A DNA stretch of 64,000 bases from Bacteroidia bacterium (lineage in GTDB: Bacteria > Bacteroidota > Bacteroidia > CAILMK01 > JACPUW01): NCBI GenBank assembly GCA_049115495.1, contig JAGDZV010000001.1, positions 705,907 through 769,906 of the forward strand, written 5' to 3'. The notes beneath the pieces were generated by a model. That model was not told the DNA's origin, did no database searches, and saw nothing but the letters and a program-made list of their open reading frames with translations. Shown here piece by piece: positions 5,951 to 41,500 of this stretch (positions within the stretch are counted from its first letter, which is position 1; every line of letters starts with the position of its first letter). Made by a program: the position numbers and the translations under genes.

Positions 5951-6158
5951 CGGTTTCAGGCCGACTTGTGCAGAGCGCTTCAAGTTCAAATTTTGCCAAG
6001 TGCCTTGAGTGCTGGTATATGTGCTACGGGACTCCAACCTCCATTAGCATTGGCTCCGACTAAACCTATGTTTAACTTTCTTTTCATTAAATTTCTCTTA
6101 ATCCTCAACATTAAGATTAAAGTACACTTCTATACATTCTACGTACTGGTGTAAACAG

Positions 6159-7127
6159 TTAAGTTTTAACAATAATTTTCCCTTTTGCATTATTGTCTTC
6201 CATGTATTGATGTGCTTTTGCCACTTCATCCAACTTGAATACTTTGTCAATATTCAAATTGATAATTCCATTTTCAACATCATCAATAAATTCCTGAAGT
6301 AGCTCTCTGGATAGGTTCTTTGATTCTCCCATGTAAACGGTCAACATACCTAATGAGGGAATATCACCCATTGGGGTGAACTCTTCCATAGTCCATTCAT
6401 TTCCTAATATTCCTGTCATGCATACCATTCCCTTGGGTGCAATGCATTGAAGTGAATCCTTCAAAGTTTTTGTCCCAATTAGTTCAAGTACTTTGTTAAC
6501 ACCATCAGGGCGTATTTGTCTGATCTGATCTTTGACACTTCCATCATCAATAGCCACATGGTCAGCACCATTTTCTAGAAGAGCTTGTTTTTTATTAGGG
6601 TTTCTAGTTGTAGAAATAACTGTTAAACCCTTAGCTTTTGCTAGTTGGCAAGACAACATTCCGATTGAAGATGTACCTCCTCTAATAAGCAGAGTTTCAC
6701 CTTTCTTAATTTCCAATGCTTGATTCAGGGATCCCGAGACAGTTTGAAACATTTCAGGGATTGCACCTAGTGTTTCCCAAGGTAGGTCACTTTTAAAGGG
6801 GAATACGATTTCAAGTGGAACAGAGGTGAATTCCGCATAGCCTCCGTCAAAAAAACGTCCCATACCACCCATAATAGCAGCAACCTGTTGCCCTTTTGAA
6901 TACGTGCCTGAAGCATCTTCTTCAATAACTCCAACACATTCAATTCCCTGGATACGTGGAAATACAACTCCTGGGGAATCACCTCTTCTTGTGAAAAGCT
7001 CAGATCTGTTTAAGCCAAATGCCTCTACTTTAATTAAGACCCACCCAGTCTTAACTTCTGGCTTTCCAACTTCCTGAATTTTGATAACCTCAGGGTCGCC
7101 AGCATTTGTTGTTATTGCTGCTCTCAT
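6159..7127 (-). CDS. MDR-family NAD(P)H:quinone oxidoreductase / zinc-type alcohol dehydrogenase-like
   Basis: GroES-like N-domain followed by a Rossmann GxGxxG-type region (LLIRGGTSSIGMLSCQLAKAKGL) and MDR C-terminal layout. 322 aa. Confidence 0.7.
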   Translation of the reverse strand: MRAAITTNAGDPEVIKIQEVGKPEVKTGWVLIKVEAFGLNRSELFTRRGDSPGVVFPRIQGIECVGVIEEDASGTYSKGQQVAAIMGGMGRFFDGGYAEFTSVPLEIVFPFKSDLPWETLGAIPEMFQTVSGSLNQALEIKKGETLLIRGGTSSIGMLSCQLAKAKGLTVISTTRNPNKKQALLENGADHVAIDDGSVKDQIRQIRPDGVNKVLELIGTKTLKDSLQCIAPKGMVCMTGILGNEWTMEEFTPMGDIPSLGMLTVYMGESKNLSRELLQEFIDDVENGIINLNIDKVFKLDEVAKAHQYMEDNNAKGKIIVKT

Positions 7128-7150
7128 TTTTTTTATTCTCTACAACGTTT

Positions 7151-7255
7151 TGCAAGCATGAAATGTAGGTCTTTTCGGAGCGATTTCAATTCCACCGATT
7201 AGAAAAGAAACTGCGAGAAGCGAACTGCGGATTACTACAAAACCGCCCTATATTT
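7151..7255. promoter_or_regulatory. conserved ~110-nt upstream module, copy B
   Basis: TATAGGGCGGTTTTGTAGTAATCCGCAGTTCGCTTCTCGCAG...AAAAGACCTACATTTCATG in the gene direction. The same module lies upstream of 85-1344. A TTG-N19-TACATTTC arrangement resembles a Bacteroidetes promoter. Confidence 0.4.
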
Positions 7256-8016
7256 TATGACTGCTGTTGTGGTTGCGCATTTATTTTTTCCAATTCATAT
7301 CCATTTTTAGTAAGGTTTAATAAACTATTCCCTATAAGTCGTCTATTATCTTTCTTTTCAAATTCTCGTATTTTCTGAAACTCGTTATTATCAAAATTGA
7401 AGCAAAAGACTTCCTTTGAGTTTTTCCAATACAACTTATTCTTTGAGTATGAAATGGACTCAACAAAGATGTCAATTGGTATTTGGAGTTCTTTAATCGT
7501 TAGAAAGTCAATATTCAATTCACAAATAGGGAATTTACCATATCCAAAGAAGATTACCTTATTCCAATCAGATTTCACAATTTGATAACAGTCCAAGATT
7601 TCGAATTCCGTATTAGAATTAAATCCCCACTTCATTTTCCCGTCCTTATTGAAAATAGCAAGACCTTCTTTGGAATATTCTTTCTGAGCCATTATTCCTT
7701 CGTCAAAGTAGGACACAACAAATTTTCTGTTAAAAACAACTATATCATTCACAGCGTCACCAATAGTGAAGGATTTTACTAATTCCTCATTACGATTATA
7801 AATCCATGCATTTTTTTCATTTTCATCAGAACGTGTATTGACAACAAGCACTGAATCATGGTCAATACGTCTGACTAGTGGAAATCGAAATTCATTTTTA
7901 GTATCAATCATCCAACTTTCTGTATGTATCTGTCCTTGTTTCGTCAATACAGAGTAAGAGACTGAATTTAAAAATTCGAAAGCTTTTATTTTACCAGAAA
8001 AATTCAATTTTATCAT
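7255..8016 (-). CDS. hypothetical protein
   Basis: 253-aa ORF with no recognisable motif. Confidence 0.45.
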   Translation of the reverse strand: MIKLNFSGKIKAFEFLNSVSYSVLTKQGQIHTESWMIDTKNEFRFPLVRRIDHDSVLVVNTRSDENEKNAWIYNRNEELVKSFTIGDAVNDIVVFNRKFVVSYFDEGIMAQKEYSKEGLAIFNKDGKMKWGFNSNTEFEILDCYQIVKSDWNKVIFFGYGKFPICELNIDFLTIKELQIPIDIFVESISYSKNKLYWKNSKEVFCFNFDNNEFQKIREFEKKDNRRLIGNSLLNLTKNGYELEKINAQPQQQS

Positions 8017-8157
8017 TACTTCTATGCACCAACGTTTTGGTTATGGACAGTAAGGGATTTCGAAGCGAAAACCTTTCAGCTTGCACTGAGCCAAAGCGTT
8101 GTATTTTGTTTTTATCTTATTCATTTTAAAAGCCAAATCAACGATTTGTCGGACTTG

Positions 8158-8808
8158 CTATGAAAACCAACCTTTCAATTTAGCAACCAACCCCTTATTG
8201 TGTATAGCCCTTGTTGGCGGTAGTTTTTTTATTTTTTCAAGTCGTTCGATTTCAGTTACGTATTCGTCATTTTCCACATACTTTTTAAAACAGTCTGGAC
8301 AAATTGAATGTCTTTGAGTCGAGTGAAATTCATTTTCGTTTTCGTTGCAGGAGATTACTGAATTACAGATTTCACAATGCTCGTGACCTTCACAATTTGC
8401 GTAGTCTTGATAAGTTGTAAATTCATATTCAGCTTTGTCGCTACGTGCTTCATGAACATTTTCAAGAACCCAATTAATTTCAGCTTCTGATTGGTCTTTA
8501 ATTTTAATCCAAGTGTCAAAGTCAGAAGTAGAGTACTTGAGTTTAAATCCGACAGTTTCAGCGAGTAAGTTGGCTTTGTCTGTCGAGTCATTCAGTTCTT
8601 TAGGAAAAAGCGTTATCCCAATGTAATTTTGAAGGTGCAAGGTCAATACTTTGTCTTTGATTTTGAAATCAAAATACTTTGAGTCCAAATCTTCAACTCT
8701 GTCAATAAGTTCGGCATTAAATTCCGATCTCAATCTGTCCGAAAGTGATTGGAATAGGTCACTATCAGGTTCATTACTTATCAATATTTCAGAGTATGTT
8801 TTCGTCAT
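8158..8808 (-). CDS. hypothetical protein with C-terminal Cys/His zinc-ribbon-like cluster
   Basis: CEGHEHCEICNSVISC...HSICPDCF near the C-terminus. Copy 2 of the upstream repeat lies immediately 5'. Confidence 0.45.
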   Translation of the reverse strand: MTKTYSEILISNEPDSDLFQSLSDRLRSEFNAELIDRVEDLDSKYFDFKIKDKVLTLHLQNYIGITLFPKELNDSTDKANLLAETVGFKLKYSTSDFDTWIKIKDQSEAEINWVLENVHEARSDKAEYEFTTYQDYANCEGHEHCEICNSVISCNENENEFHSTQRHSICPDCFKKYVENDEYVTEIERLEKIKKLPPTRAIHNKGLVAKLKGWFS

Positions 8809-8820
8809 TTTTTAATTACC

Positions 8821-8903
8821 GCCAACTTATTTATATCCGTATAAAAGTAACGCATATCCCTAAAAACTTTAGGGACAAACTGACCTTGAGCACAAAACAA
8901 TCT
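8821..8903. repeat. conserved upstream promoter/operator-like element, copy 2 of 3
   Basis: Shares CCAACTTATTTATATCCGTATAAAAGTAACG with copy 1. It has a perfect palindrome TCCCTAAA-AAC-TTTAGGGA at 8857-8875, followed by TGACCTTGAGCACAAAACAATCT, which is shared with copy 3. Confidence 0.5.
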
Positions 8904-9040
8904 TATTTATAACAGCCCCAACTATAACTAAGGTTAAACCATAGTTATCGAGGGAATCACCGAAGGCAGAGTTCAAAACTAGCTCAAATAAACTGCTGCC
9001 TTGCCGCAATGTATTAAAGTCTAATTGCTGTAACCAGTTA

Positions 9041-9625
9041 TTATTCGATTATTTTTTCTTTACTCGTACCGAGCCAATATTCAACAAATGAATCAAAACA
9101 GAATATCAATACAATAAATAAAATGGTAATTCCAAAAGTGATTAGTTTATTCTTAATAGGAATATTAGTTCTTAATTGAAGCTTGGTAAGCTTATTTACC
9201 ATATCGATCACAACTTCTTTATTGAAGAAAAGGATTAAAAGTAACATCAAAAAAACTATTAAAGCATTGGCTAATGCTGGATAGACATCAAGAAAAATGA
9301 TATCAAAAACGATAATATTTACCATCATAGGTATCAAAATCAATACACCAATCAATTTTGTTTTATTCCATAATAAAAGCCAAGCTCCTAAAAGCTGCAG
9401 GAGACCAACGAATAAAATATAAGCGTAAGAGTGTCCCATAAATGTCCATGCCAATGAAAATCCACTTGCTTCACCTAATGTCGTGTTTGCGACTTCGGTA
9501 GGTATTTTTCCTTTCATGTAGAACTGTCCACCTAATAATTTGGACACTCCATAAATGTTTAAGATAATAAAAACGCACTGACGAAAGACATGTTCAAATG
9601 TCCTCTTATAGTTGAATTGGTACAT
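9041..9625 (-). CDS. integral membrane protein (DoxX-like?)
   Basis: Multiple hydrophobic helices. It is the last gene of the apparent operon 10775->9041. Confidence 0.45.
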   Translation of the reverse strand: MYQFNYKRTFEHVFRQCVFIILNIYGVSKLLGGQFYMKGKIPTEVANTTLGEASGFSLAWTFMGHSYAYILFVGLLQLLGAWLLLWNKTKLIGVLILIPMMVNIIVFDIIFLDVYPALANALIVFLMLLLILFFNKEVVIDMVNKLTKLQLRTNIPIKNKLITFGITILFIVLIFCFDSFVEYWLGTSKEKIIE

Positions 9626-22582: not shown

Positions 22583-23737
22583 CTAGAAAATTCTATATCT
22601 CAAGGTTAACAAAGCTTCATAATTGAAGTATTCTCTAAAGGCCAAAGTATTCGCTCTTTGATTATTAGAAAATCTTTTCATTAGGTCAAATTGAGCGCCT
22701 AAACTTATCTTTTCGGTAATACCCATTTCAGCTCTAAAGTCAATTCCTGTATAGAAATATTGAAGGTTTGCGCCCTCATTTGTTTTTAATTTGAAATGAT
22801 ATCTATGGGCAATTTTGGGATGGACACTTAAACTGATTTTATCGTTCTTATACTTCATCCTAATACCGAAATCATGTTGGGTGTAACCATATTTCTGAGT
22901 TGAGAAATCTAAGCGTGTAAAACTTCGAAGTGGTAGTTCTACATAGCCATTGGCGGTATACTTTCTTAATTTATATTCTGCCATTACATAAAACCAATCG
23001 CGTTCTTGTTCATTGTAATAACTATCATCATCAAATCCATCACCTTCATCATCAATTACTTCTACAGGGCCGGTGTAGTTTACATCATAGTACTTTCTAA
23101 AATGAGTTTCAAAGGATTTAAACACTTTGTATTCATTTTTACCCATAGAAAACTCCTTCTCAATATTTAGGTAAGTACCTACAGCATTATACATTAGGGA
23201 ATTGTTATCTGCAGTTGGATAGTCTTTGTATTGATAAAAAGCACCTAACCTTCTTACATAGCCAGACTTTCTTCTTTCATATTCTAAAGGAATTCTCATT
23301 TGTGAAAATGAAAGAGGTGTTCTTATAGCACCTTGCCTTTGGTCAACTCCATTTTGACGGTAAGTCGCAAATTGTGGCACCAATCTTAAGTATTTGTTTA
23401 CACCCAATTTGTATCTAATTGGCGCTTCAATTCTCATTCTATAGCTGTGCGCATCAGCATTTGTAAAAAACTGTTGCGTGCTTGCACTTGATTTCAGTTT
23501 GTAGTAGAATCTATCGGTTTTGTAGCTGGTGCTAAACCTTAGCTGAGAATAATAGAAAAAACCGTTTTGATACATATCCCATCGCTCAAGGGTATCATTT
23601 CCATCAAAATAGAATGAAGGATTTTTGAATATATTGGTCTCGTAACCAATTCCATTTTTAAAATCTAGTTTGCTCTGAGCGTAAGTTATACTGCCCAATA
23701 TGTTTAAGATTAAGGCTGAAATGATTCGCTTTTTCAT
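22583..23737 (-). CDS. outer-membrane beta-barrel protein
   Basis: Signal peptide, alternating amphipathic beta-strand pattern, and a C-terminal aromatic residue (…LRYRIF). It is the last gene of the Tgase/ATP-grasp/peptide operon. Confidence 0.5.
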   Translation of the reverse strand: MKKRIISALILNILGSITYAQSKLDFKNGIGYETNIFKNPSFYFDGNDTLERWDMYQNGFFYYSQLRFSTSYKTDRFYYKLKSSASTQQFFTNADAHSYRMRIEAPIRYKLGVNKYLRLVPQFATYRQNGVDQRQGAIRTPLSFSQMRIPLEYERRKSGYVRRLGAFYQYKDYPTADNNSLMYNAVGTYLNIEKEFSMGKNEYKVFKSFETHFRKYYDVNYTGPVEVIDDEGDGFDDDSYYNEQERDWFYVMAEYKLRKYTANGYVELPLRSFTRLDFSTQKYGYTQHDFGIRMKYKNDKISLSVHPKIAHRYHFKLKTNEGANLQYFYTGIDFRAEMGITEKISLGAQFDLMKRFSNNQRANTLAFREYFNYEALLTLRYRIF

Positions 23738-23739
23738 AG

Positions 23740-23904
23740 TTAAGGGTTTTTAGCTACTTGCTGGTTTATTAAAGGTTGAATCTCGAAGTGGTCAACAGAT
23801 ACTACTTGTACTTCTTGGGTGAGCCCAAGGTGATCTATCATGGCTAGGCCAATTAACGCGCCTAACAAAATGAGAAAGTGGATTTTTGGCTTTGTGATTT
23901 TCAT
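23740..23904 (-). CDS. 54-aa small membrane/secreted peptide, translationally coupled to the ATP-grasp gene
   Basis: Not in the supplied ORF track because it is under 60 aa. Its ATG overlaps the ATP-grasp TGA in an ATGA arrangement at 23901-23904. Sequence: MKITKPKIHFLILLGALIGLAMIDHLGLTQEVQVVSVDHFEIQPLINQQVAKNP. It ends 2 nt before the OMP gene start. Confidence 0.4.
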   Translation of the reverse strand: MKITKPKIHFLILLGALIGLAMIDHLGLTQEVQVVSVDHFEIQPLINQQVAKNP

Positions 23905-24773
23905 GCTGCGTGATTTTTATTGTTGATGATGGTTTTAAGTCCTTTTCTATTGGCCATTTGAATTCCCAAACCTGGCCTTACGTTTACCTCAATTACTCCC
24001 GGCCCTTCATGTTGATCTATGATCAAGTCTACTCCGAGATATTTTAGCGGAAACACTTTTGAAGTAGCCTTTGAGATTTTTATGATCTCATTCCAATGTG
24101 GCAAAACCTTACCAGTAATTATCTCGTGGCTGTCAGGGTGTACTGCTAGATATCCTTTGCCATTGTAGGCATCCATTAAAGTGCCTGTTTTAAGGTCAAT
24201 TCCTACTCCTAAACCACCCTGATGCAAATTTGCTTTGCCATCAGACTCATTTGTTGGTAGCCTAAGCATGGCCATTACAGGTGTATGCTTATAAGTTATC
24301 ACCCTAATATCTGGCACTCCTTTGCTGTATATTTTCCCAAAGAATTCATGCGGTATTATGCACTGCTCAATGATTACTTTATCATCGTCAGAGAAAGAGT
24401 ATAAACCGAATATGGTGTTGGCAATGTGGCTGAAAATTCTATCAAGAGAAAGCTCTTTATCGCCACTAAACCATTGATTACCTACTTTTTTCATGATTAA
24501 GATGCCAGAACCACCCCTACCGCATGCTGGTTTTAATACCAATCTTTGATGATGCTCAACTGAATTCCAAACTTTTTCAATCTCCCCTATTCTGTTTATA
24601 ACACCATAGGTTTCTGGAGTTCTAATTCTGTTTTTCTGTAAAATACCTTTTGCCAGTACTTTGTCATCGGCCAGTTTATAATGTTGCCTTGGATTGTTTG
24701 GGTAAATGAAGTTGATATTTCGCTCATTTATACCCATATACTCCTTTCTTATTTGCTTTAATTTCTTAAACAT
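23901..24773 (-). CDS. RimK-like ATP-grasp (alpha-L-glutamate ligase-related) protein
   Basis: ATP-grasp core motifs (LVLKPACGRGGSGI; GVIEVNVRPGLG). The size and arrangement match the RimK-related family that travels with transglutaminase-7TM proteins. Confidence 0.65.
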   Translation of the reverse strand: MFKKLKQIRKEYMGINERNINFIYPNNPRQHYKLADDKVLAKGILQKNRIRTPETYGVINRIGEIEKVWNSVEHHQRLVLKPACGRGGSGILIMKKVGNQWFSGDKELSLDRIFSHIANTIFGLYSFSDDDKVIIEQCIIPHEFFGKIYSKGVPDIRVITYKHTPVMAMLRLPTNESDGKANLHQGGLGVGIDLKTGTLMDAYNGKGYLAVHPDSHEIITGKVLPHWNEIIKISKATSKVFPLKYLGVDLIIDQHEGPGVIEVNVRPGLGIQMANRKGLKTIINNKNHAA

Positions 24774-24776
24774 GGC

Positions 24777-26315
24777 TTATTGATTTATTGGTTGAAAATT
24801 GAATCGATTGTACTCAAGCACTCTAAGCCCTATCCATTTGCCTAGCAGTAGAGAGATTCCAGCAACAAGCATTAAGGTTTCTGGAAAAGTGATGATGAAA
24901 TCAAGTATGATTTGAGATGAAACTATTAGAAAGCACAATACTGTAATCAGCAAAGTTTGTATGTAAAGTTTGGCAGCTTCGGTTAATCCATCTTCATCTA
25001 CTTTTTGGGCAAATCTTTCGGCTGTGAGCGTAAGTACTATTATTGGAAAGAACAGTGCCAGGTCACTTTTATTAAAGCTTATTAGGTTGAAAAAGTGGAT
25101 TGACACCAAACATGTGACCACAACAGCAGTGAGCATTATTACCACTTTTGGTGTATGTTGAACACCCCATTTATTTAGTGGACCGCTCAATAAACTTATG
25201 ATCACAATAATGATTGAGAACAATACTAATCCCTGAACAAAGCCTGTTTCTACAAGCGCTAGGGCAATGAGTACAGGTAGAAAAACACCAAAGCTTTTTA
25301 AACCAATAATATTCTTGAGTAGTGCAACGATCAATGCCCCAAGTGGTAGCATTAATAATGCTCTAAGTAGGTTATTGCTAAGCTTGTTCTTCATTATTAT
25401 AGACTTTAAGTTGAGCATGGCGTAGTTTGAAAAATGATTTACTTCTAAAGGCTCTATGTGATACCTGTAATCGAAAGACTGCTTTCCTGTTCGTGTTATT
25501 AGAAAATGGTCGCCGTTGTAGATCTTTAAATAGTTTACCGGCAAACTGGCAAAGTATCCGTTGAAAGGATCAAATGGAATCCATTGATCGGCTAATTTGA
25601 TCTCGGTCCATGCATGCGAAGTCTTTTTTTCGTTTCGTTCTAATATGAGCCCGCCCACCATTCTTGACTCAAAACCCGTAGCTCTAGCTAAGGCTACAAA
25701 CAATCTACTTTTACCATTGCAGCTAGCCTCGTTATTGTGCAAGGCCATAGTTGCACTTGTAAGTAGGCTTGTGCTCTTTTTGGGCATATCAAATACGTAA
25801 TTGTATAGTGCGTTTATACCTTCAATTGTATTGGTGCTATTTTCAGTTAAATACTCTGCCAGCAGCTCTATTGATGTATTTGTATGATCAATTAGCTCAT
25901 TATCAAAAAATGTGTTTTTAAAAGTAGATGTACTTGGCATCGGAATTTTATTGTCAAGCTCATATTTTATGGGCTTGGTAATACAATCAAATTCTAGCTT
26001 TATTTCTTGAGATTTTTGGGAAACACCAACCCATTCTATCTTGTGGTTTTCATTTTCAAAAAACTCTTTGTTAAGCGAATCACTTTTTGAGCTAAAAATG
26101 ATCTGTTGCCTTTGGTCATTAACTGGAATAAAAGTTGAAACCTTAAAGTCTCCTGTTCCTAATAGATCAAAGTTGTAAGAAACCTTATGCTTTAAAACCG
26201 ATTCCCACGGGTTTGATACTGAATCATTCTTTTTATACCTAAGTGAAATCAAAATCAGCGGAATGCTAATGAGCAGAAAGGCTGCGATTCTTACTTGTGC
26301 TATTGAACTTTTCAT
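24777..26315 (-). CDS. transglutaminase-like domain fused to C-terminal multi-TM (7TM) module
   Basis: Transglutaminase-like Cys/His/Asp core (NEASCNGKSRLFVALARATGFESRMVGG...SHAWTEI...FDP), followed by about seven hydrophobic helices. Confidence 0.6.
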   Translation of the reverse strand: MKSSIAQVRIAAFLLISIPLILISLRYKKNDSVSNPWESVLKHKVSYNFDLLGTGDFKVSTFIPVNDQRQQIIFSSKSDSLNKEFFENENHKIEWVGVSQKSQEIKLEFDCITKPIKYELDNKIPMPSTSTFKNTFFDNELIDHTNTSIELLAEYLTENSTNTIEGINALYNYVFDMPKKSTSLLTSATMALHNNEASCNGKSRLFVALARATGFESRMVGGLILERNEKKTSHAWTEIKLADQWIPFDPFNGYFASLPVNYLKIYNGDHFLITRTGKQSFDYRYHIEPLEVNHFSNYAMLNLKSIIMKNKLSNNLLRALLMLPLGALIVALLKNIIGLKSFGVFLPVLIALALVETGFVQGLVLFSIIIVIISLLSGPLNKWGVQHTPKVVIMLTAVVVTCLVSIHFFNLISFNKSDLALFFPIIVLTLTAERFAQKVDEDGLTEAAKLYIQTLLITVLCFLIVSSQIILDFIITFPETLMLVAGISLLLGKWIGLRVLEYNRFNFQPINQ

Positions 26316-26372
26316 ATCGTTGTGTTTAGAAGTGAAACAGTTCGATTTTAATTTACCCTACCCTTGTTTTAT

Positions 26373-26407
26373 GAGTTTTGAGTTTTGAGTTCTAAGTTTT
26401 GAGTTTT
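26373..26407. repeat. heptanucleotide tandem repeat (GAGTTTT-like x5)
   Basis: GAGTTTT GAGTTTT GAGTTCT AAGTTTT GAGTTTT in the divergent promoter region between the Tgase operon and the ECF sigma gene. Confidence 0.5.
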
Positions 26408-26499: not shown

Positions 26500-27021
26500 A
26501 TGAGAGTAGTTGGCGCAACAGGCGTTTGCGAAGAATCGGTTTACAATCAGGTTTTTAAAACAGAGTCTCCAGGGCTTTTTAGGTTCTTAACCTATAAAAC
26601 GGGCAGCGAAACAAAAGCCAGGGACATACTACAAGATAGCTTTGCTAAACTTTGGGAAAAGTGTGCTGATGTGCTGCCTGAAAAGGCGAAATCATTCCTT
26701 TTTACCATAGCCAATAATGCATTTTTAAATGAAGTAAAAAGAGAAAAGGTAAGGTTTGAATATGCTCCAATAACACATAAAAGTGATCTAGACATAGAGT
26801 CTCCAGAATACAAAATGCGTTATGATGAGTACAAACAGAGTTTAGAAGAAGCCATTAACAACTTACCGGAAGGCCAACGCGAAGTATTTCTATTAAACCG
26901 AGTTGAAAAACACACGTATAAAGAAATTGCTGAAATGCTCGATGTGAGTCAAAAAGCTATTGAGAAGCGAATGAGCAAAGCGCTTCAGAAGCTGAAGGAA
27001 ATACTTACCATTAAGGAGTGA
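26500..27021 (+). CDS. ECF-type RNA polymerase sigma-70 factor
   Basis: Region 2 (ARDILQDSFAKLWEK) and region 4 HTH (YKEIAEMLDVSQKAIEKRMSKALQKLK). The true start may lie downstream of the first ATG. Confidence 0.75.
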   Translation: MRVVGATGVCEESVYNQVFKTESPGLFRFLTYKTGSETKARDILQDSFAKLWEKCADVLPEKAKSFLFTIANNAFLNEVKREKVRFEYAPITHKSDLDIESPEYKMRYDEYKQSLEEAINNLPEGQREVFLLNRVEKHTYKEIAEMLDVSQKAIEKRMSKALQKLKEILTIKE

Positions 27022-27085: not shown

Positions 27086-27427
27086 ATGAGAATGACAGTT
27101 GCCCAGAGTAAAAAAATAAGACTAATTCGTGTAGAAGGAATAGATTACTTCTGGACGGCAAAGCATAATTGGGATTCGGAAAAATTATTCCTAAGAATTG
27201 GACTTAAAGAACAGCCAAACTACTTTTTCACTTTAAGCCTGCCTATTAATTCCGAGCGCCTTTTCTTTCCAAATTATGAAACGAATAAATCTTTTGGTGT
27301 AGTAACACCTTCCCTCATTTCAGAGATAATAAAAATTGGAAATAAAAATTTAGATTGGAAAAACAAAAAGCCAAGCGTTCTTGATAATGCTCTTCTGGAT
27401 ACTTCAATTCAAAATCTAAAATCTTAA
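27086..27427 (+). CDS. hypothetical protein
   Basis: 113-aa ORF lying between the sigma and anti-sigma genes. Confidence 0.4.
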   Translation: MRMTVAQSKKIRLIRVEGIDYFWTAKHNWDSEKLFLRIGLKEQPNYFFTLSLPINSERLFFPNYETNKSFGVVTPSLISEIIKIGNKNLDWKNKKPSVLDNALLDTSIQNLKS

Positions 27428-27487
27428 ATTTCAAAGTTGGGTAGGGTAAATGAAAACATAGATGTTTAATGAGTAGAATGATTAAAA

Positions 27488-28423
27488 ATGAATGATTGGA
27501 ATAAAGACGATACTTTTTTAGCACGTTGGCTTAGCAACGAACTTACCGAACAAGAAAAAAAGGCTTTTGAAGCATCAGACGAGTATGCCGACTACCTAAT
27601 ATTAAAGCAGACTACTGATAGCATTAAACCTTTGGACTTTGATGTAGTTAGTGAACTGAGCGAGCTCAAACAGAAGCTTACCCCTAAAAAAGAAGTCAAA
27701 AAAACACGCCCCATAAGAACCTGGTATATAGCCGCAGCTTCAGTTGTGCTTTTAATTGGTACTTTTTTAATTTATCAATTGCTTACTGAAGGTAATGGTC
27801 CAGTAGTTACAGAATCACTTGTGGCAAGTAAATCGAGCCTTGAGTTGCCTGATGGCTCTTTTGTAAAACTCAACAGCGAATCAAAAGTGACTTACAACCC
27901 TAAAAATTGGGAAGAAAACAGAAGCCTAACACTTGAGGGAGAAGCCTTTTTTGAAGTAAGTAAGGGATCTAAATTCACTGTTTCAACCAATAATGGAAGC
28001 GTTGAAGTGTTAGGAACTAGCTTTAACGTAAAAGACCGAAATAGCAAACTAGAAGTTTTATGCTACACGGGTAAAGTTAGAGTATCTTCTAGTAGCAATG
28101 AAAAAATAATTACTCCAGGACAAGGTGTGGTAATGAATGGTTCACAAATTGAAGAATTGAATTTTAATGCAACCCAGCCGGGTTGGTTAAATGGTGTAAT
28201 TTCATTTAACAACACTTCTCTTAAAGAAGCCGTTGAAGAATATGAAAGACAGTTTGGATTTAGCGTTGATCTTCCAGAAGCGTTGGCCAACGAACCATTT
28301 AATGGAAGCTTTCCTAGTTCAGACGCTTCAGCGGCAATTGAATTACTCTTAGGTGGATTCGAAAATTGCAACTACTCAATTGATACTAATTCAAAGCGCA
28401 TTACGGTTAATCTAAAGGAATAA
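27488..28423 (+). CDS. FecR-family anti-sigma factor
   Basis: Single TM (WYIAAASVVLLIGTFLIY), then a FecR-like periplasmic domain. It sits between the ECF sigma and the TonB receptor. Confidence 0.65.
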   Translation: MNDWNKDDTFLARWLSNELTEQEKKAFEASDEYADYLILKQTTDSIKPLDFDVVSELSELKQKLTPKKEVKKTRPIRTWYIAAASVVLLIGTFLIYQLLTEGNGPVVTESLVASKSSLELPDGSFVKLNSESKVTYNPKNWEENRSLTLEGEAFFEVSKGSKFTVSTNNGSVEVLGTSFNVKDRNSKLEVLCYTGKVRVSSSSNEKIITPGQGVVMNGSQIEELNFNATQPGWLNGVISFNNTSLKEAVEEYERQFGFSVDLPEALANEPFNGSFPSSDASAAIELLLGGFENCNYSIDTNSKRITVNLKE

Positions 28424-28429
28424 TTTCAT

Positions 28430-31048
28430 TTGAAATACATACTAGCAATAGCTCTTTGTCTCTTTCTTGTTCCTTTTGCAAATGGACAGGATTACAAGCT
28501 CAATTGCGATTCTGAAACGCTTCCGCAAGTATTCTCAAAACTTGAAAAAGAGCATGGAGTTTATTTCTCTTACTCGGTTAATAGAATTGAAGAACAGAAG
28601 GTAACAGTAACTCTAAAAGCTAATGATCTAGGCTCTTTGCTAGATTCTCTTCTACACCCAATTGGTCTGCAAGCCAGAGAAATACGCAAAGGGTTCTACT
28701 TAGTTGAAACCCATAAAGAACGGCAGATTACTGTTAGCATTTTAGATGCTGAAACATCAGCGCCATTAGCCTTTGCAAATTGGCAAATTGGAAACAAACC
28801 TTTTGGTAGAGTTGCTAATGCAAAAGGCCAAGTTTACCTTACGGTAGAAGAGTTAAATCAAGACTTGCATTACGTCTCTTATGTGGGATATGAAACGATA
28901 GGTTTTCTAGTTGACCCAAACGAAATAGTTGAATCTACCATAGAGGTCAAGCTGCAAAAGGCCACGAAGGGTCTTGCCGAAGTTGTAATAATTGAATATA
29001 TAAACCGTGGAATATCAGTGCTTAGCGACTATACTACCACTCAAATTGACATTGAAAATCTCGAAATATTAGCCGGATTGCCTGAGAAAGACATTCTTCT
29101 TTCTACTCAAATGATTCCGGGGGTAGCTTCAAATGATGAAACCGCATCTGGTATAAATATTCGCGGTGGTGGTAAAGACCAAACCCTTATCTATTGGGAC
29201 CGTATTCCCGTATACCACGCTGCGCACTACTTCGGAAGTATTTCTTCGTTTATACCTTCTTCAGTTAATCAAATACAGGTGCATAGAAACTATATACCTG
29301 TGTACTTTAATGGAGCAACATCTGGGGTTTTAAATATCGAATCTTTTAACAAAGCGAATGGTGGTTTTGATGGTGATGTAAACCTAACAAGTACCCATTT
29401 AGACGCATCTGTTCATCTTCCCATTGCAAAAGGTTTAAAACTCTTTGCTGCAGGCAGAAACTCGTACAATCATTTGATTTCAACTCCTACTTTCAATTCA
29501 TTTTCTCAAAAAATGTTTGACGGCAGCAAAGTGGGCAATATTGCCAACAACAGTGAAGAAAACGACCTTGATTACTTATCGAGCCTTTTGTTTAAAGACT
29601 TGAATAGCAAGTTAATTTGGCAACCAAACAGAAATAACTTTCTATCTATTAGCCTTTTGGCTAACTCAAATAACTTGAACTTCTCTGCTGATAATGAAGA
29701 GTTTGAAAGGTTAGACTACCAGTTTCACGATGTGCTTTCAACTGGAGTGAACCTATTTTACAAAAGGAGTTGGTCAACCAAACTTAGCAGCGACTTTAGC
29801 TTAACAAGCACCAACTACCGAATGGAAAACCGCAGCAAAGAAGTATACCAAGAAGAAGGTGAACCAGAACAGGATGAGTTCATTAAAGAAATCACCAATA
29901 GCATGGAGAATATTGAAGGTAAACTTGGCATTACCTACTCATTTGATTCTTTGCACTTTCTAAGAATTGGTTATCAATACAACCAGATAAACAGCAGTCT
30001 AAATTATAAAGACAGCTCAACCTTTGACGATGAATATACGGACACCCTAGAAGCTGGCGGTTTCTTAAATGGTTTATATATTGACACTAGATTTGGTCTT
30101 GGAAATCGGTTAGAAATAAACCCACAATTCAGACTAGATTATTGGGTAGCAGGCGAAGAAGAGCGGGCCATACTTCCAAAACCATTGGTACACCTAACTT
30201 ACAAGGTAAATTCAAATCTTTCACTAAGGTCTTCTTTGGGAATCTATAGTCAATACATTAGAGCACTTGATGATCCAGAACTGGATATTACAAATATTTC
30301 TGAAAATATTTGGGTAGCCGCTAATGGTGAAGCTGTAGACCTACTGCGAAGTTCACAGGCCACTCTTGGGTTTATTTACGAGAATAAAGGATTTCTTTTT
30401 GACGCTGATGTTTTCTACAAACAGCTCGATGGGGTTATAGTATCAAACAAGTTCACTCAGGACGTAGAAGATGAAATTGAGTTTGCCGATGGAATGGGAA
30501 CGCTATATGGCTTAGACATAATGCTTAGAAAACGCAGCAAGTACTTTAGCAATTGGGTTAGCTATTCGTATAATCAAAGCAAGGTTGAGTTTGATGAATA
30601 CAGCAGCGGAAGTATAGTAGATTTCCTTAATAGACCACATCAACTTAGAATAGTAAGCGTGGCTACTTGGAAAAGACTTGAAGGATCAATTGGATGGATA
30701 TTTAAATCAGGAACACCTTTTACCGAAGCCGTAGGCGTTGTACAAAGGCTTGATGAAGAAAACGAGCCTTATACCGCCATTGAATGGGGCAGTATAAACG
30801 CTAGCCGACTAGAAAATTATCATAGACTTGACGCATCCCTTTGGTATGATTTCTCAAAAGAACACGCGCAATGGAAAGGTCGCGTTGGTTTCTCGGTACT
30901 AAACGTTTATGCAAGAGAAAATATTTGGAGCCGTAGGTACATTATTGAAGAAAACGAAGTAGGCAATGAGCTAACCTATGAACTCATAGAAGAAGAAAAG
31001 TTCTTTTTACCATTTACCCCAAGTTTTGCGTTTAGGGTATCATTTTAA
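28430..31048 (+). CDS. TonB-dependent outer-membrane receptor with N-terminal STN signalling domain
   Basis: A signal peptide and STN-like region (TLPQVFSKLEKEHGVYFSY) are followed by a plug region (IRGGGKDQTLIYWDRIPVY) and a long beta-barrel ending in an aromatic residue (…FRVSF). Confidence 0.7.
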   Translation: MKYILAIALCLFLVPFANGQDYKLNCDSETLPQVFSKLEKEHGVYFSYSVNRIEEQKVTVTLKANDLGSLLDSLLHPIGLQAREIRKGFYLVETHKERQITVSILDAETSAPLAFANWQIGNKPFGRVANAKGQVYLTVEELNQDLHYVSYVGYETIGFLVDPNEIVESTIEVKLQKATKGLAEVVIIEYINRGISVLSDYTTTQIDIENLEILAGLPEKDILLSTQMIPGVASNDETASGINIRGGGKDQTLIYWDRIPVYHAAHYFGSISSFIPSSVNQIQVHRNYIPVYFNGATSGVLNIESFNKANGGFDGDVNLTSTHLDASVHLPIAKGLKLFAAGRNSYNHLISTPTFNSFSQKMFDGSKVGNIANNSEENDLDYLSSLLFKDLNSKLIWQPNRNNFLSISLLANSNNLNFSADNEEFERLDYQFHDVLSTGVNLFYKRSWSTKLSSDFSLTSTNYRMENRSKEVYQEEGEPEQDEFIKEITNSMENIEGKLGITYSFDSLHFLRIGYQYNQINSSLNYKDSSTFDDEYTDTLEAGGFLNGLYIDTRFGLGNRLEINPQFRLDYWVAGEEERAILPKPLVHLTYKVNSNLSLRSSLGIYSQYIRALDDPELDITNISENIWVAANGEAVDLLRSSQATLGFIYENKGFLFDADVFYKQLDGVIVSNKFTQDVEDEIEFADGMGTLYGLDIMLRKRSKYFSNWVSYSYNQSKVEFDEYSSGSIVDFLNRPHQLRIVSVATWKRLEGSIGWIFKSGTPFTEAVGVVQRLDEENEPYTAIEWGSINASRLENYHRLDASLWYDFSKEHAQWKGRVGFSVLNVYARENIWSRRYIIEENEVGNELTYELIEEEKFFLPFTPSFAFRVSF

Positions 31049-35532: not shown

Positions 35533-38500
35533 CTACTTCACCCTATTAAGCACAACAAACACCACTTCATCGTCTACCGATAACCTTGCAATGTGCACAC
35601 CGGCGGCTAATAACCCAAGCTCATTCTTTAGTTGGTAATCGTGTATTCCTGCACCTAGTTTTGAATTGACCAAGGTGTTCACTACCCTGCCGTGCATATC
35701 TACAAGCTCTAGCTTAACTTGAGCCGGCTCGTTAATTACGTAGCTCAATGTAAGTTGTTTACTAAACGGGTTTGGGTAAGCATTAAGACCGAACGACCGA
35801 TTTAGTTCACTAACGGAGTTTATTTTAATACTCTTATTCTTTGAAACTATACTACTGCAACTTGATGCATTGGTTGATGTGCAGGTGATGTTATAACCTC
35901 CCTCAGCAGCAAATGTGTGTGTGGCCACCGCTCCCCTTGCTGTTGCTCCATCGCCAAAACTCCAAATAAAGGAACTCAACGAAGTATCTACTTGGCTCCC
36001 TACCTCAAAATTGAAAGTAAGTCCGGTTAAATTGCTATACGTCCATTCAGGTAATGAAGGTGATTTGAGAATAGTAATACTCAAAGAATCTTTATCAGTA
36101 CATTCATATTTCGATGTTGCTTCTAACACGACATTATAAGTTCCGTAAGCACCGTAAATGTGCGTTGGATTTTGTGCCGTATTTGAATTATTATCACCAA
36201 ACTCCCATTTAAACTGAGCTGCATCTTCTGATTCATTCAAAAAGAAAATGGTGTCCTTCTCACAAAACCCGGTAAAATCAAACTTGGCTATAGGCTGCAA
36301 GTAGGAGCTGAATTCATATAATACAACATCATTATTTTTATTGGTATCTCTTGAATATTCAGTATGAATAGTAAGATCCTGTTTTCCTTCGCTTATAAAT
36401 TCAATTGGGTTATTTAAAGCTATCCGTATTTCATCCATTGGTTTTAAAACAAAGGCATTTGGCATATTCAGCCATTCATAATCTTTAGCACCATTAACAT
36501 CACTATTAACTTTTAAAGAATCAGCGCTATAAACAATGCTAGGACCTTCATTTCTTATGACTATAGCAATAGAATCTAGATTGCCAATTTTTCTACATGA
36601 ATCAAGGGGCCCTAATACTTCAACTATTTTAATGTCTTTCCTAATTTCATCGGCTCCAATATCAGGGTTTGTATTTGACCTTTTATCACCATCCTTATCA
36701 TGCGCAACGCCAAATGAACCACCGCTCGCCATCAATGAAACAGCACCTGCATGTAAATCATCAATAGAAGTGAAATAAGGCTGGTCTGAAATTGAATGTT
36801 GATTCTGATCAACTGAAATTGATTTGATTTGGGCTAAATCTGTTTGCACTCCATTAATTTGAGCAAGGTTTTTGGCCCGCGGTGCGTAGTAATCATTATA
36901 GTCAAACATGCCTTTCAGATAGATGCCACTTGACTCTATTATTGCTTCGCCTTTACCCAAGGACATAAAAATATTATTGGCAACTGCCCCATTTTCAATA
37001 TTTAATAAACTTGTTGCTGCGCTTAAACTTGTTGAATCTGTAACCAATACACTGTTGTGCAAAATATCAATGTACCTTGAGTTGTTGACTTCAAGAGCAG
37101 CTTTTGCACTTTGACTACCTGAGGCTATTAGAAAATTGTTTGCAATAACTGATGTATCAACCCCACTTGAGTTTTCGCCCTTAATGCTGATTGCTTGAGC
37201 GGTTGAATTAATTGAATTGGCAATAATGTGATTTGCCGCACCATCTTGAAAACTTAGTGCAAGGGCATCGTTCCTTTTAAGCCCTTTGATTTCATTATTA
37301 GTAAATTGAGTATGCGCAACATTTGTAAAGGAAGCACCGAACTTATGCTGCTCAAAGAAAACATTTACAGCAAACTCATTGCCTTCAAGCATTTTTTGGC
37401 CCGTGTTTCCCATAAAAACAACTCCATAATATCCACCAATTATTTGATTGTTTTGCACTTTGTTATTATTAACATTTTTTGTTTCAGTTAATTTATAATC
37501 AGAGCCGCTTGCCACTACCGCCGCATTGTTAAGGCTATTTGTACTTTTTGAAGCGATAAGCTTGCAGTTAGTAATGCTATTATGTTTTGAGTTGTTTGCA
37601 AAATAAACAGCTCTGCCATCAGCATTTGACGTAGTTTGTATAGTAAGACTATCAAAAGTGAAGTAACTTACATTGCCTAGTTTTAATGTATGCAAACCTT
37701 GTTTCCCGTTGTGGCTAAGTATGGTACTATCGCTTTGCCCCACTATTCTAATTTGTGTTGTGTCTGATACCCCGCTTATAAATGGAACATTAATTTGCCC
37801 CTGATAAAGTCCTTTTTGTAGCCTAATAGTTAATGGTTTTGATATACCTGAACACTCAAGGTACTCAAATGCTTCATTTAAAGTTTCAAAATTAGCATTC
37901 AGCTTGCCTACACTAATTACACTTTTCTTTTCATCGAGGCAAAGGCTTTTACAAAAATGTTCTCTAAGCCTATCAGGGTCACTGTTTCTAAACCTTTTTG
38001 TAATGGTTGCGCAAAGCTGATACCCATTGCCCGTTGTTACGGTATCAGGCCTAAACGGCGTATCAAAAACAAAACTTACTGTATCGCGACGCAGAACTGT
38101 GCCGGTTTTAAAACTTTGCTCAACTACCACACCGCTATCTACAGTATATGCGAGCGATATTTGGTCATTAAACCAAGTCTTAATTCCATCATTCTTAACC
38201 GTAACTCGTATTTTATTTTCTCCATATTTAAAAGAGCGTGGTGCAACATCAACAATATCTGCATCATATTCAATTATGGCAAACTCATAAGCACCTATAT
38301 CAAAGTTCTTATCTCCTTGTGCAGGTCTTTTGTTACCGTAAAAATCTTTGGCAAACTTGTTTTCATTATAACCAGTATTATCTAATTGCCTTGCCTTGGT
38401 TCTTAAATCACCAAAGTCAAAATAGCGTGGGTTAACTGAAATTGAATGAGAGTCTTTTCTCGATACATTTACATATGAGGCCAATGAAGAGTGGTTACTC

Positions 38501-41500
38501 CAAGCATAAATAAAATTGGTGCTATTTGGCGCGTAAAAGTTATTGTAGTCCATTTCTCCAGGGTCAACTGCTGACTTTGAAAAAGCAAAACCTTCAAATT
38601 CTCTGTAAATGCAATTATTTTTTATTATTCCTGTACCTTCAAGCCTAAATGCCGCGGCGCTAACGTGATTGGTAGTTTTGCTTTTATTCCAAATACTGTT
38701 ACCTATAACATAAGTATTGACACCATAATAGTATAGAGAATGAACATTTTGGTTTGATGAGCCCGAAATCATATTATTCACCACATATCCTGAATCAAAA
38801 TCAGCAAGATAGACTCCGTGTCCTTCTACAACCACTCTGTTTGAAGCCACTGAATCGCCCTCACTCTCAAATATGTAGAAACCATAGGCGATGTTCTGAT
38901 TAACAGAGTCAATATCGTTTCCTACAAAATATTGATGCCTATTTCTTCCTGAATAAAAAACGATTCCGTTTTGATTCCTGAAAACGTTATTTATAAATGA
39001 ATTATGCTGATCGCGCTTTTGCGGAGAACAAACCCAATAAACGCCACTTCCTCCTTCAAGCCTATTATTCTCAAAAGTATTGAAGCTACCATTTCTTTCT
39101 CCGAAAGCTTCAATAATATATCCGCTATTATTTGCCCCCTTACTCTTAAGCGTTGAGTTTTTTACGACATTACTATCGCTGTAATTCTCAAAAATAAAAA
39201 CTTCGCCATCAGCGGCAGTCGTTTCTAACATTAGGCTATCGAAAATGAAGTGTTTAGCCCCATTTAGCTTAAAAGTAGTCTTGGTAACTTTTGAATTATT
39301 TGTAACTACACTACTTTGCCCAGCTCCTACAATGGTAACTGTGTTTCTGTAAGAAGCCCCCCTTATAAACCCCATTTTAACAAAATCATGAATACTATCT
39401 CTAGCAACTCTTATAGTGGTTGGCTGAGACAATCCTGAGCAGCTTAGATGATTAATGGCGTATGATAATTTTTTAAAGTCGGCACCAGAACTGCCAACCG
39501 TAATCACTGGGTTAATAAATTCAGAGCATATTGAATCGCAAAAAACATCACCTAAAGCGTCGGGGTCTTCTCCCCTAAAAGGTTTAGTAAATCTTATGCA
39601 TACCTTTCGCTTTTTTGCTTTCCCAATGAGGTAATATGGTAAAGTAAAGCTAAACTGCACAGTACTATCAGGCTTTACTATACCCGTTACTATGGTATCT
39701 TTCACGGCTGCTGCCGAATCAATCGCATATTCAACAAAAATGCTATCACTGTTCCAAGTTTTAGTTCCGTAATTTTCAATTACAACACCTATCGTATTAT
39801 TTCCCCTTGTTAAGTACTTATTTTCAATATCAACTATATCAGCGTCCCAAGGATATATATAGTACTCATCAGCGCCTATATCATAAGTAGAATCAAGCTT
39901 AATAGGCCTACTTTCTCCATCAAAATCAGACTTTAAAACACTCAGGTTTTTCCCCTTATTGTTTAGGTTATAACTTATGGTATGTAAATCTCTATCGCCA
40001 AAAAACTCGGGATTCACACTCAGTGAATGTTGATTTTGTGTTGAATCATCTTGTTGCCAATCTGCAATGGTTTTATAGCCTTCTCCATTCAAACGCGCCA
40101 AATAACTTCCATTAATACTGTAGTAGTTGTTATGGTCTATATAGCCATTTCTTAAGTCTCTGATAGTTGCATAAACTGGAAAACTATTTTGGCTTACTAT
40201 AATGTTATTTTGGATTTTTAAATCGCTAACTGATTCTTTATAAAGAGTTGTTTCAAATAACATGGTTGAGTTAGACAGTGTAACTCTTGGGCTCCTTGAA
40301 AAAAGACTGTTTCCAAGAAAATGCATTTGCTTTATTCTATCGCCATAAATGGTATTGCTTTTACCGTTTTGTTGACCTGACATCATATTGTTCATTACAT
40401 AAGATGTGTCGTAATCCCAATCTTGGTTTGCTCTGAGAAAGAACATTCCATAATTTGGTGTAAATACGGTATTGCCGCATAAACTGTCAGCGGCATTCTC
40501 CCTGCTATATATGCCAATTCCATCATCATGGGCAAGGCTATCTATTGTATTACCGATAATGCGCATACCATGGCAATGCATATAATAAATACTGTAAGCC
40601 AACTGATTATAAAACTCATTATGTTGAATCCAAAATCTAGTATTTGCAGGTTTTGATTTTGAATACCCCCTTATGTATAGCCCGTAATACCCGCCTGATA
40701 TCTTGTTGCCAATTAATTTAAAGTTTCTAATGGTTCTTTGATGTCCATCACCTCCGGTTGACGAGCCAGAAATATGAACCCCCGCAATAACACTTCTATT
40801 TATGGTCGGATTAACAAGATCGGCTGAAATATTGCAGTTTGTTACTGCATTATAATTTGAGTTTCTTTCTACCCAAATTACGCGACCGCCATTAGTGTTT
40901 GTGTTTTTAATGGCTAAGCTATCAATTGTATAAAAACTTGCGTATCTAAATGTTAAGGTAAAGTTTGCGGAGCTCGTAAGAACGGTTGAATCGGCTCCTG
41001 CTCCAACTATACGTATTGTATTTTCTTTGCTTGCTCCCCTAATTGGGTTTAGAATTACCTGTTCTTTATAAACACCTGGTTTTACCCTTATAGTTACTGG
41101 GCCGCACATGCCATTAATTCTTAGGCTGTCAATAGCCATATCTACTGAAGTAAAATCGGCACCGCTTGAACCAACGGTATAAAGCCCACTCATTGAGCTT
41201 GGTTTGTCAATTATAACTTCAAGGGTATCGTTGTAGCGAGATGAATCTAGAGTTCCATTAACAGAATCAATATAAATTTTGAAGGTGTCGTTAATGGCTT
41301 TAGAAAATGTATGATTCCCAATAAAAACAGAAGCCTTTTCTCCAGGTAAAATATTTGAATTAAAAACTGCAGAAGGCTGTTGAACGCCATTTATACTCCA
41401 CGAAATTTTACCCTTAGCAATTGTATTATTTCCTACATTGCTTAAAACTACGTTTACCGGAGAAGTTCCTACACAGCTAGGTTCAATTGATAATATACCT

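Follow-up and report, generated by a model that had tools for sequence, protein, structure and literature searches.

An RloB/RloC-type operon of Bacteroidota with an intact transglutaminase triad, a small anchor-like protein and a dedicated outer-membrane barrel

Introduction

A 64,000-nucleotide stretch of the genome of a Bacteroidia bacterium (assembly GCA_049115495.1, contig JAGDZV010000001.1, forward strand, positions 705,907 to 769,906; hereafter the window) contains four tightly packed genes. They encode a transglutaminase-like protein with a seven-transmembrane (7TM) module, an ATP-grasp ligase, a hydrophobic protein of 54 residues and an outer-membrane beta-barrel. The locus raises the question of what these four proteins do together and, in particular, whether the small one is the cargo of the system or a part of it. 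Comparison with related loci places the operon as the Bacteroidota version of a widespread, undescribed envelope branch of the RloB/RloC systems. The small protein is most likely a subunit of the machine rather than an exported peptide.

The first two genes form a known pair. The first-pass annotation of the window, made from the sequence alone, had recognized them as a predicted amidoligase pairing, and this holds; the pair is now partly characterized genetically as RloB/RloC of Pseudomonas aeruginosa and P. fluorescens (mBio 2025; PMC12239564). Rlo stands for retropepsin-like osmotic stress tolerance. RloA is a secreted retropepsin and cuts, in vitro, runs of at least eight glutamates. A mutant that lacks all three RloA paralogues dies in low osmolarity unless rloB or rloC is deleted as well (PMC12239564), which fits a periplasmic product of RloBC that needs removal. 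In Pseudomonas, RloBC has been connected with tolerance to beta-lactams, biofilm formation, cell shape and the ability to survive low osmolarity. RloB is described by the same authors as an inactive transglutaminase that is 96% proteobacterial (PMC12239564). The text of the Pfam family, which builds on the work of Iyer et al. 2009 cited below, gives the 7TM module as 'usually fused to an inactive transglutaminase'. Predicted amidoligase systems that combine ATP-grasp and transglutaminase proteins were reportedly treated by Iyer, Abhiman, Burroughs and Aravind in 2009 (Mol Biosyst 5:1636). In such systems the ATP-grasp enzyme is predicted to ligate peptide tags and the transglutaminase-like domain to bind or reverse them, as cited in PMC3495828 and PMC12096838.

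Results

Organization of the operon

The genes and the putative terminator lie on the minus strand in the following order.

26315..24777, minus strand: gene 1, RloB-like membrane protein of 512 residues
24773..23901, minus strand: gene 2, RloC-like cytoplasmic ATP-grasp amino-acid ligase of 290 residues
23904..23740, minus strand: gene 3, small membrane or secreted protein of 54 residues (MKITKPKIHFLILLGALIGLAMIDHLG...)
23737..22583, minus strand: gene 4, outer-membrane beta-barrel of 384 residues
22531..22506, minus strand: hairpin and T-run resembling an intrinsic terminator, closing the operon downstream of gene 4

The junctions were read directly from the sequence. Three nucleotides (GCC) lie between the TAA stop codon of gene 1 and the start codon (ATG) of gene 2. 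The end of gene 2 overlaps the start of gene 3 by four nucleotides (ATGA), and the TAA of gene 3 is separated from the ATG of gene 4 by two (CT). The hairpin has nine pairs, eight of them G-C, and is followed by TTTTTTTATA. The upstream neighbour of the operon is divergent and the downstream neighbour, which encodes a Thioredoxin_9 protein, is convergent. Thus, the transcription unit consists of four genes. These coordinates and the three junctions agree with the first-pass annotation, and its description of a compact co-directional operon is borne out by them. It had also called the 54-residue reading frame unannotated, which is incorrect: NCBI carries it as hypothetical protein JXQ87_03120 (MFY0672365.1), and its homologues were predicted by the gene callers of four further sources. 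The four-gene arrangement is not due to chance; it recurs in dozens of loci.

The transglutaminase-like domain retains a catalytic triad

The protein encoded by gene 1 starts with an N-terminal transmembrane helix, followed by a periplasmic beta-sandwich at residues 41–113, the transglutaminase-like core and seven transmembrane helices. Its cytoplasmic C-terminus carries a conserved motif that comprises W494, G496, R498, E501, R504 and F505. Pfam assigns the core to PF01841 (7.8e-18) and the helices to PF14402 (7TM_transglut, 1.3e-37). The match to the NCBIfam model inact_TG_RloB reaches 119.6 bits, far below its cut-off of 900. The transglutaminase-like domain is predicted to be periplasmic.

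Cys199, His234 and Asp249 form an intact triad, embedded in the motifs S-C-NGKS, TSHxWxE and WxPFD, respectively. In a profile alignment these residues superpose on the canonical triad of PDB entry 3isr. Judged from its sequence, the window protein thus differs from characterized RloB, a point that the first-pass annotation had missed. An alignment of the 7TM proteins of related loci, which are numbered here with the prefix L, shows the triad without exception in the window, all Bacteroidota loci and L018, L021, L022, L039, L040, L048 and L072. The taxa that carry it include Bacteroidota, Delta-, Gamma- and Zetaproteobacteria, Gallionellaceae, Spirochaetaceae, Omnitrophota and others. It is missing from every Pseudomonas-type protein and from all loci linked to RloA.

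A fold search with the 7TM module returned no informative match. Searches of the PDB with the single sequences of the 7TM protein and of the ligase returned nothing; only profile searches gave matches.

The ATP-grasp ligase

Gene 2 encodes an ATP-grasp protein with Pfam matches to ATPgrasp_ST (PF14397, 2.2e-66) and RimK (3.3e-10). Its match to TIGR02291 ('alpha-L-glutamate ligase-like') has an E-value of 1e-76 and, at 257.8 bits, stays under the trusted cut-off of 314.2. Among solved structures, profile searches place RimK (PDB entries 7qys, 5zct and 4iwx; ~2e-6), cyanophycin synthetase (2e-5) and TTLL6/7 closest to the ligase. It is most similar in sequence to RimK, cyanophycin synthetase and the tubulin polyglutamylases, enzymes by which amino acids are polymerized onto peptide chains. 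Its invariant residues include the motif E262-x-N264. The ligase gene lies directly 3' of the 7TM-transglutaminase gene in 78 of 80 loci that were retrieved with an ATP-grasp alignment; in the remaining two, the contig stops immediately upstream of the ligase.

Two branches of RloB/RloC loci

Related loci were sampled in three sets: the 80 loci seeded with the ATP-grasp alignment, which derive from species-representative genomes; five contigs of the closest relatives; and 80 metagenome loci seeded with triad-bearing 7TM proteins. The resulting census comprises 145 non-redundant loci, 89 with the triad and 56 without. RloA was searched in each fetched locus with a hidden Markov model (HMM), and the long form of gene 3 encodes a tetratricopeptide repeat (TPR) protein. 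The counts are as follows.

RloA in the fetched locus: triad-bearing 0/89, triad-less 31/56
Long TPR gene 3 and barrel: triad-bearing 31, triad-less 0
Short gene 3 and barrel: triad-bearing 24, triad-less 0
Barrel directly after the ligase: triad-bearing 6, triad-less 0
TPR gene, no barrel found downstream: triad-bearing 6, triad-less 0
Unrecognized: triad-bearing 2, triad-less not applicable
Contig too short to judge: triad-bearing 20; of the triad-less loci, 10 have less than 3 kb downstream

Neither gene 3 nor the barrel was found in any of the 56 triad-less loci, 46 of which have at least 3 kb of downstream sequence. Within the ATP-grasp-seeded set, RloA accompanies none of 22 triad-bearing and 31 of 56 triad-less loci (Fisher p 1e-6, phylogeny ignored). 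The barrel shows the reverse distribution with 18 of 22 against 0 of 56 (Fisher p 3e-14, again ignoring phylogeny). A search for RloA in the 64-kb window and the 89 triad-bearing loci, using three tblastn seeds and a 31-sequence HMM, found none; the best E-value in the window is 0.96.

The first-pass annotation had suggested that the small gene and the barrel gene replace the protease usually seen in this context, and had named their recurrence in homologous loci as a test. This recurrence is evident from the census and from the closest relatives. The replacement stands as a distribution, RloA and the barrel being found in opposite branches. As to what the absence of RloA reflects, the live catalytic triad may track it most directly, because a hydrolase or transferase within the same protein could take over in cis the task that RloA has in trans.

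Several loci deviate from these two patterns. The pattern-based call of the triad counts L039 and L040, which carry a D-C-GGQ variant, among the triad-less loci; by alignment they are triad-positive. They derive from Omnitrophota and an unclassified bacterium and contain no gene 3, barrel or RloA in the available sequence. They may represent a third, minimal form of two genes. In the Planctomycetota locus L052 (2507-4134, minus strand, next to 4382-9045, plus strand), a 7TM protein with a Ser-His-Asp variant of the triad is followed by the ligase and a 709-residue TPR gene. Divergently adjoining them are a RimK-like ligase and a RimB/RloA-like retropepsin (E 5e-12). Here, a cytoplasmic-type rim pair adjoins the envelope system.

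The 54-residue protein is related to the anchor of a TPR scaffold

The gene 3 product, which has no family assignment, begins with a basic N-terminus; a hydrophobic helix, then a short beta-like strand (QVVSV) and finally a variable tail follow. A homologue of 53–55 residues with the same four-nucleotide overlap is present in all five closest relatives (L081-L084 and L165), where it was called independently by the source pipelines; the ligases of the four relatives measured are 60–69% identical to that of the window. A family HMM matches the homologues with 1e-15 to 1e-21. Altogether there are 26 distinct homologues of 52–77 residues from several families. Their conserved parts are the motif M-x-x-x-K-[SP]-x-x-[PH]-[FY], the hydrophobic helix and, some 10–15 residues further on, a short alternating strand. 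The C-terminal tail varies from 0 to 40 residues and contains not one conserved residue.

Although most pairs are saturated at synonymous sites, frame, length and start overlap are kept, and the sequence comparison thereby identifies the 54-residue frame as a real, conserved gene. The ratio of non-synonymous to synonymous substitution rates (dN/dS, omega) is 0.17–0.41 in the seven of ten pairs for which it is computable; with the synonymous sites saturated, it is weighed as supportive and not as decisive. Mismatches by codon position amount to 0.51/0.27/0.61. The coding signature expected by the first-pass annotation is therefore present.

In other triad-bearing loci, the position of gene 3 is occupied by a TPR protein of 620–1000 residues (TPR_2 at 1e-82). 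The N-terminus of these proteins has the layout ...E-S-F-[IV]-P-V, helix, ...V-T-[IV]-I-[ED]-I, which is also the layout of the gene 3 product. An HMM built from 13 small reading frames and run against all reading frames of the loci did not retrieve the TPR proteins with significance (E 1.8 and 7.2). In the reverse direction, the N-terminal 60 residues of 33 TPR proteins were built into an HMM, which was run against 15,911 reading frames and matched only frames in the gene 3 position down to E 0.13. Among them are the small frames of L008 (4.4e-7), L014 (5.7e-4) and L010 (2e-3). Direct comparison of the two profiles by hhalign aligns 40 columns in register (probability 94.5%, E 7.5e-8). The proteins in this position form a size series of about 1000, 760, 625, 328, 174, 50–77 and 0 residues, the last value referring to six otherwise intact operons that have no gene 3 (Allomuricauda, Spongiimicrobium, Aquimarina, Croceivirga and others). 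Based on these alignments, the 54-residue product is best read as a stand-alone membrane-anchor module of a periplasmic TPR scaffold. By the positive-inside rule, its tail is predicted to lie in the periplasm, away from the cytoplasmic ligase.

In the subfamily closest to the window (L081-L084), A-L-A closes the hydrophobic helix and [DE]-H comes next. The window has G-L-A-M-I-D-H at the end of its helix (residues about 19–25; 23826-23840, minus strand), which fits the -3/-1 rule of signal peptidase I. More distant homologues have G-I-P where A-L-A is found in the closest subfamily. Predicted cleavage by signal peptidase may thus release a Gln-rich periplasmic peptide of about 30 residues.

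Four loci (L048, L107, L141 and L164) have a gene 3 of about 1000 codons and no recognizable barrel downstream. A fusion of TPR and barrel in the manner of PgaA or BcsC was considered for these long forms and rejected; the repeats extend to the C-terminus and the barrel HMM does not match. In the spirochaete locus L048 (2556-4373, plus strand), a 290-residue TPR-like reading frame and a 243-residue frame matched by the barrel HMM are located upstream of the 7TM gene.

The outer-membrane barrel belongs to a small dedicated family

The product of gene 4 has a signal peptide and about 16 strands. No family of Pfam or NCBIfam matches it. A word-indexed search for homologues yielded only seven proteins, and an exhaustive profile search was used instead. 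It identified 131 members among 1.84 billion representatives, nearly all of them 360–420 residues long and matched over their full length. A look-up that starts from a barrel homologue with 41% identity returns the identical gene layout. The barrel is a small family dedicated to the triad-bearing type of operon. A fold search with the barrel was considered as support for polymer export and dropped, secretion barrels and porins not being told apart by it.

Regulatory genes adjoining the operon

Divergently from the operon, genes of an extracytoplasmic function (ECF) sigma factor, its putative anti-sigma factor and a TonB-dependent receptor are encoded together in the window, as in known transducer systems of this type. 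The elements are listed below.

26362..26333, minus strand: bipartite promoter-like motif GGTAGGGT-N15-TGTTTCA, ending ~17 nucleotides before the start codon of gene 1
26500..27021, plus strand, divergent: ECF-type sigma factor (Pfam Sigma70_r2, Sigma70_r4_2, Sigma70_ECF)
27440..27469, plus strand: second copy of the bipartite motif, immediately upstream of fecR
27488..28423, plus strand: FecR-type anti-sigma factor (Pfam FecR 1.6e-19, FecR_C 3e-7), conserved synteny
28430..31048, plus strand: TonB-dependent receptor (Pfam Plug 4.6e-6), conserved synteny

The pattern GGTAGGGT-N15/16-TGTT[TA][ACT]A has exactly two matches in the 64 kb, none being expected from shuffled sequence. The upstream regions of the close relatives have GGTAGGGT-N15/16-TGTTTCA in common, and the motif is conserved in L003, L007, L008, L014, L081-L088, L093-L095 and L165, which represent several families of Bacteroidota. 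In many loci of this phylum it is located ~50–60 nucleotides upstream of gene 1. L003, L082/L085 and L095 likewise have the second copy before fecR. From its sequence and position, the motif is a plausible candidate for an ECF-dependent promoter. Because it precedes both the operon and fecR, the operon is probably regulated by the neighbouring sigma factor.

A sigma factor gene adjoins the operon in L001-L007, L010, L012, L081-L083 and L165 as well, and the whole trio is syntenic in loci of Flavobacteriaceae, Cyclobacteriaceae, Crocinitomicaceae and Saprospiraceae. The receptor is probably the sensing partner of FecR. Its CarbopepD_reg_2 score of 28.6 bits is below the cut-off of 32.2; about 100 residues precede this CarbopepD_reg-like domain, and no STN signalling domain was matched in the receptor at E <= 0.001. 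The trio was not seen beside the proteobacterial loci L021 and L072, the upstream sequence of L021 being only ~500 nucleotides long. The trio therefore looks like a lineage-specific layer of control.

Two details of this region are peculiar to the window. A 466-nucleotide gap between the sigma factor gene and fecR contains a reading frame of 113 residues (27086-27427, plus strand) that has no Pfam match. The corresponding gap of the relatives measures about 45–120 nucleotides, and tblastn found no homologue of the frame in the fetched loci; it is either an insertion or a spurious reading frame. Just upstream of the promoter-like motif, imperfect AAACTC/AAAACTC repeats (aaaactcaaaacttagaactcaaaactcaaaactca) occupy 26370-26405 on the minus strand. 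They are not found in the shorter intergenic regions of the relatives.

Discussion

Comparison with known systems

The window shares with RloABC the gene pair, its order and its adjacency: a protein with PF01841 and PF14402 is followed by a TIGR02291/PF14397 ATP-grasp protein. Pseudomonas loci (L049, L056) are retrieved by the ligase of the window. The triad is intact in the window and absent in RloB, no RloA retropepsin is encoded in the operon or elsewhere in the 64 kb, a small anchor and an outer-membrane barrel are added, and both proteins score under the NCBIfam cut-offs (120 versus 900 and 258 versus 314 bits). The gene pair is already known. In the searchable literature, which did not extend to Iyer et al. 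2009, no description of a triad branch with TPR protein or anchor and barrel was found. Literature searches on the Pfam and TIGRFAM identifiers returned no papers.

Synthase-dependent exopolymer secretion (alginate with AlgK/AlgE, Pel with PelB/PelC, cellulose with BcsC, PNAG with PgaA) is similar in having an operon-dedicated barrel of the 16–18-strand class. A periplasmic TPR scaffold, as those systems have it, is present in 37 of the related loci, and the window retains only the anchor of ~54 residues. In contrast to those systems, the candidate polymerase is an ATP-grasp amino-acid ligase and not an inner-membrane glycosyltransferase of the kind that c-di-GMP usually activates; Pfam and NCBIfam detect no glycosyltransferase or c-di-GMP-binding domain in the four operon proteins. 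Furthermore, the barrel and the TPR protein of these operons are separate polypeptides, and the fold match of the barrel is unspecific.

RimK/RimB, a poly-alpha-glutamate ligase with its retropepsin, provides the nearest solved ligase by profile and likewise pairs a ligase with a hydrolase. However, that system is wholly cytoplasmic, targets ribosomal protein S6 and has no membrane protein or barrel, and the likeness is confined to short stretches of the ATP-grasp fold. PgsBCA-E/CapBCA-E of Bacillus is a membrane machine for synthesis and export of poly-gamma-glutamate. With PgsE/CapE it includes a single-helix peptide of ~50 residues, as the window does with gene 3. PgsB/CapB is a Mur-ligase-like enzyme, unlike the ATP-grasp ligase of the window, and the system is Gram-positive and has no outer-membrane component. 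The searches run here revealed no sequence relationship between it and the operon.

A putative machine for export of a peptide polymer

We tentatively favour an envelope-spanning machine that exports a peptide polymer made by the ATP-grasp ligase, a reading that is quite possible and remains short of an even chance. On the cytoplasmic side of the 7TM protein, the ligase would build a non-ribosomal, probably acidic peptide, similar to poly-alpha-glutamate, which the 7TM module would hand to the periplasm. There, the active Cys-His-Asp domain would trim, release or transfer it; where the domain is dead, RloA would do so in trans. The product of gene 3, or the TPR protein in its place, would link the complex in the inner membrane with the barrel, and the polymer would leave the cell by way of the latter. 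In such a machine the 54-residue protein would not be cargo but a structural component, the minimal remnant of the TPR scaffold. The arrangement would mirror the logic of synthase-dependent polysaccharide export and would also account for the epistasis observed in Pseudomonas.

Several points weigh against this assignment. The 7TM module has no characterized relative. The barrel fold is generic; porins and TpsB/Omp85 score as high as or higher than PelB, AlgE, BcsC and PgaA. The TPR scaffold is gone in the window and gene 3 is missing from six operons, so that a physical bridge is not essential. The association statistics were calculated without phylogenetic correction. The metagenome loci (L085-L164), having been fetched by patterns specific for the triad, are no test of whether the triad predicts the other features. 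RloA could also be encoded elsewhere in the genomes, the search having covered the 64 kb of the window or a flank of ~6–8 kb per locus.

A bolder extension of the export model is doubtful, if worth stating. Here, the triad branch would be a new envelope-spanning pathway of Gram-negative bacteria for synthesis and secretion of a non-ribosomal poly-amino acid, most plausibly poly-alpha-glutamate. Its layout would correspond to that of the synthase-dependent polysaccharide systems, with the ligase, the 7TM protein as conduit including its own processing domain, the TPR scaffold or a minimal anchor, and the dedicated barrel. RloABC of Pseudomonas would be a derivative that does not export and whose product is destroyed by RloA. 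If true, this would explain the hypo-osmotic lethality of the protease mutants.

The split into two branches points to a substance that the system delivers to the periplasm and that must then be exported or degraded. As the RloBC pair is widespread, the split offers a concrete and testable idea of its role. The comparison additionally identifies a barrel family without Pfam or NCBIfam model, a family of envelope proteins of ~55 residues and a candidate ECF-sigma promoter motif of Bacteroidota.

Alternative explanations

The same genes could serve for tagging or cross-linking. The ligase would then add glutamate or other residues to a defined protein, a lipid-linked precursor or a peptidoglycan precursor, the Cys-His-Asp domain would be a true transglutaminase or endopeptidase acting on envelope targets, and the barrel would be an anchor, a target or a porin. 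This is rather unlikely: it does not account for one operon having both a long periplasmic TPR protein and a conserved barrel of its own, no candidate target gene is conserved in the neighbourhood, and the Pseudomonas work found no genome-encoded poly-acidic periplasmic substrate (PMC12239564). The polymer might, on the other hand, be sensed by its own producer. In this sub-case of export, a polycarboxylate peptide for metal binding or signalling would be the ligand of the adjoining TonB receptor and, via FecR and the ECF sigma factor, raise expression of the operon, comparable to pyoverdine with FpvA/FpvR/PvdS. The synteny of the trio with the operon across several Bacteroidota families, the same bipartite motif before operon and fecR and the lack of a SusD-like partner gene beside the receptor are consistent with such a loop. 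It is nevertheless improbable, given that the trio was not seen beside the two proteobacterial loci named above (with the short upstream sequence of L021 to be borne in mind), that no signalling domain was detected in the receptor and that nothing indicates metal binding.

Two further explanations concern gene 3 itself. [quoted passage not shown] Translational coupling of gene 3 to the ligase suits this proposal, as does a conserved N-terminal part with a hypervariable tail, which is the pattern of leader and core. Moreover, the predicted cleavage at A-L-A|[DE]-H would place a peptide of ~30 residues that contains Gln and Lys in the compartment of the active transglutaminase domain. However, the conserved part of gene 3 is homologous to the anchor of the 620–1000-residue TPR proteins in the same gene position, and the gene is dispensable, being missing from six intact operons and represented by a TPR gene of 330–1000 residues in 37 loci. 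These two facts argue against a RiPP precursor. A cluster of the graspetide type would be expected to contain a soluble precursor, constant companion of its modifying ATP-grasp enzyme, with a leader for recognition and conserved modifiable residues in the core; the gene 3 product begins with a hydrophobic helix of signal or anchor type. In addition, this helix and the predicted topology with the N-terminus inside separate the tail from the cytoplasmic ligase, the 26 distinct homologues share not one conserved residue in the tail, the ligase resembles RimK/TIGR02291, and neither a dedicated leader protease nor an ABC exporter is present. We regard a RiPP as highly improbable, and the small reading frame should not be annotated as a precursor. 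It might instead be the non-functional leftover of a degraded TPR gene in what is really a three-gene operon, to which the size series from ~1000 to 0 residues and the six operons without gene 3 would correspond. A leftover would not be expected to keep frame, length, start overlap and N-terminal motif in 26 distinct sequences with saturated synonymous sites, and both the omega values and the codon-position mismatches given above speak against it. Among the explanations considered, this one has the lowest probability. The export machine with gene 3 as a subunit is preferred on balance.

Other features of the window

A PADLOC search for defence systems gave no match. By far the largest reading frame in the window encodes 2198 residues and is located at 35533-42129 on the minus strand.

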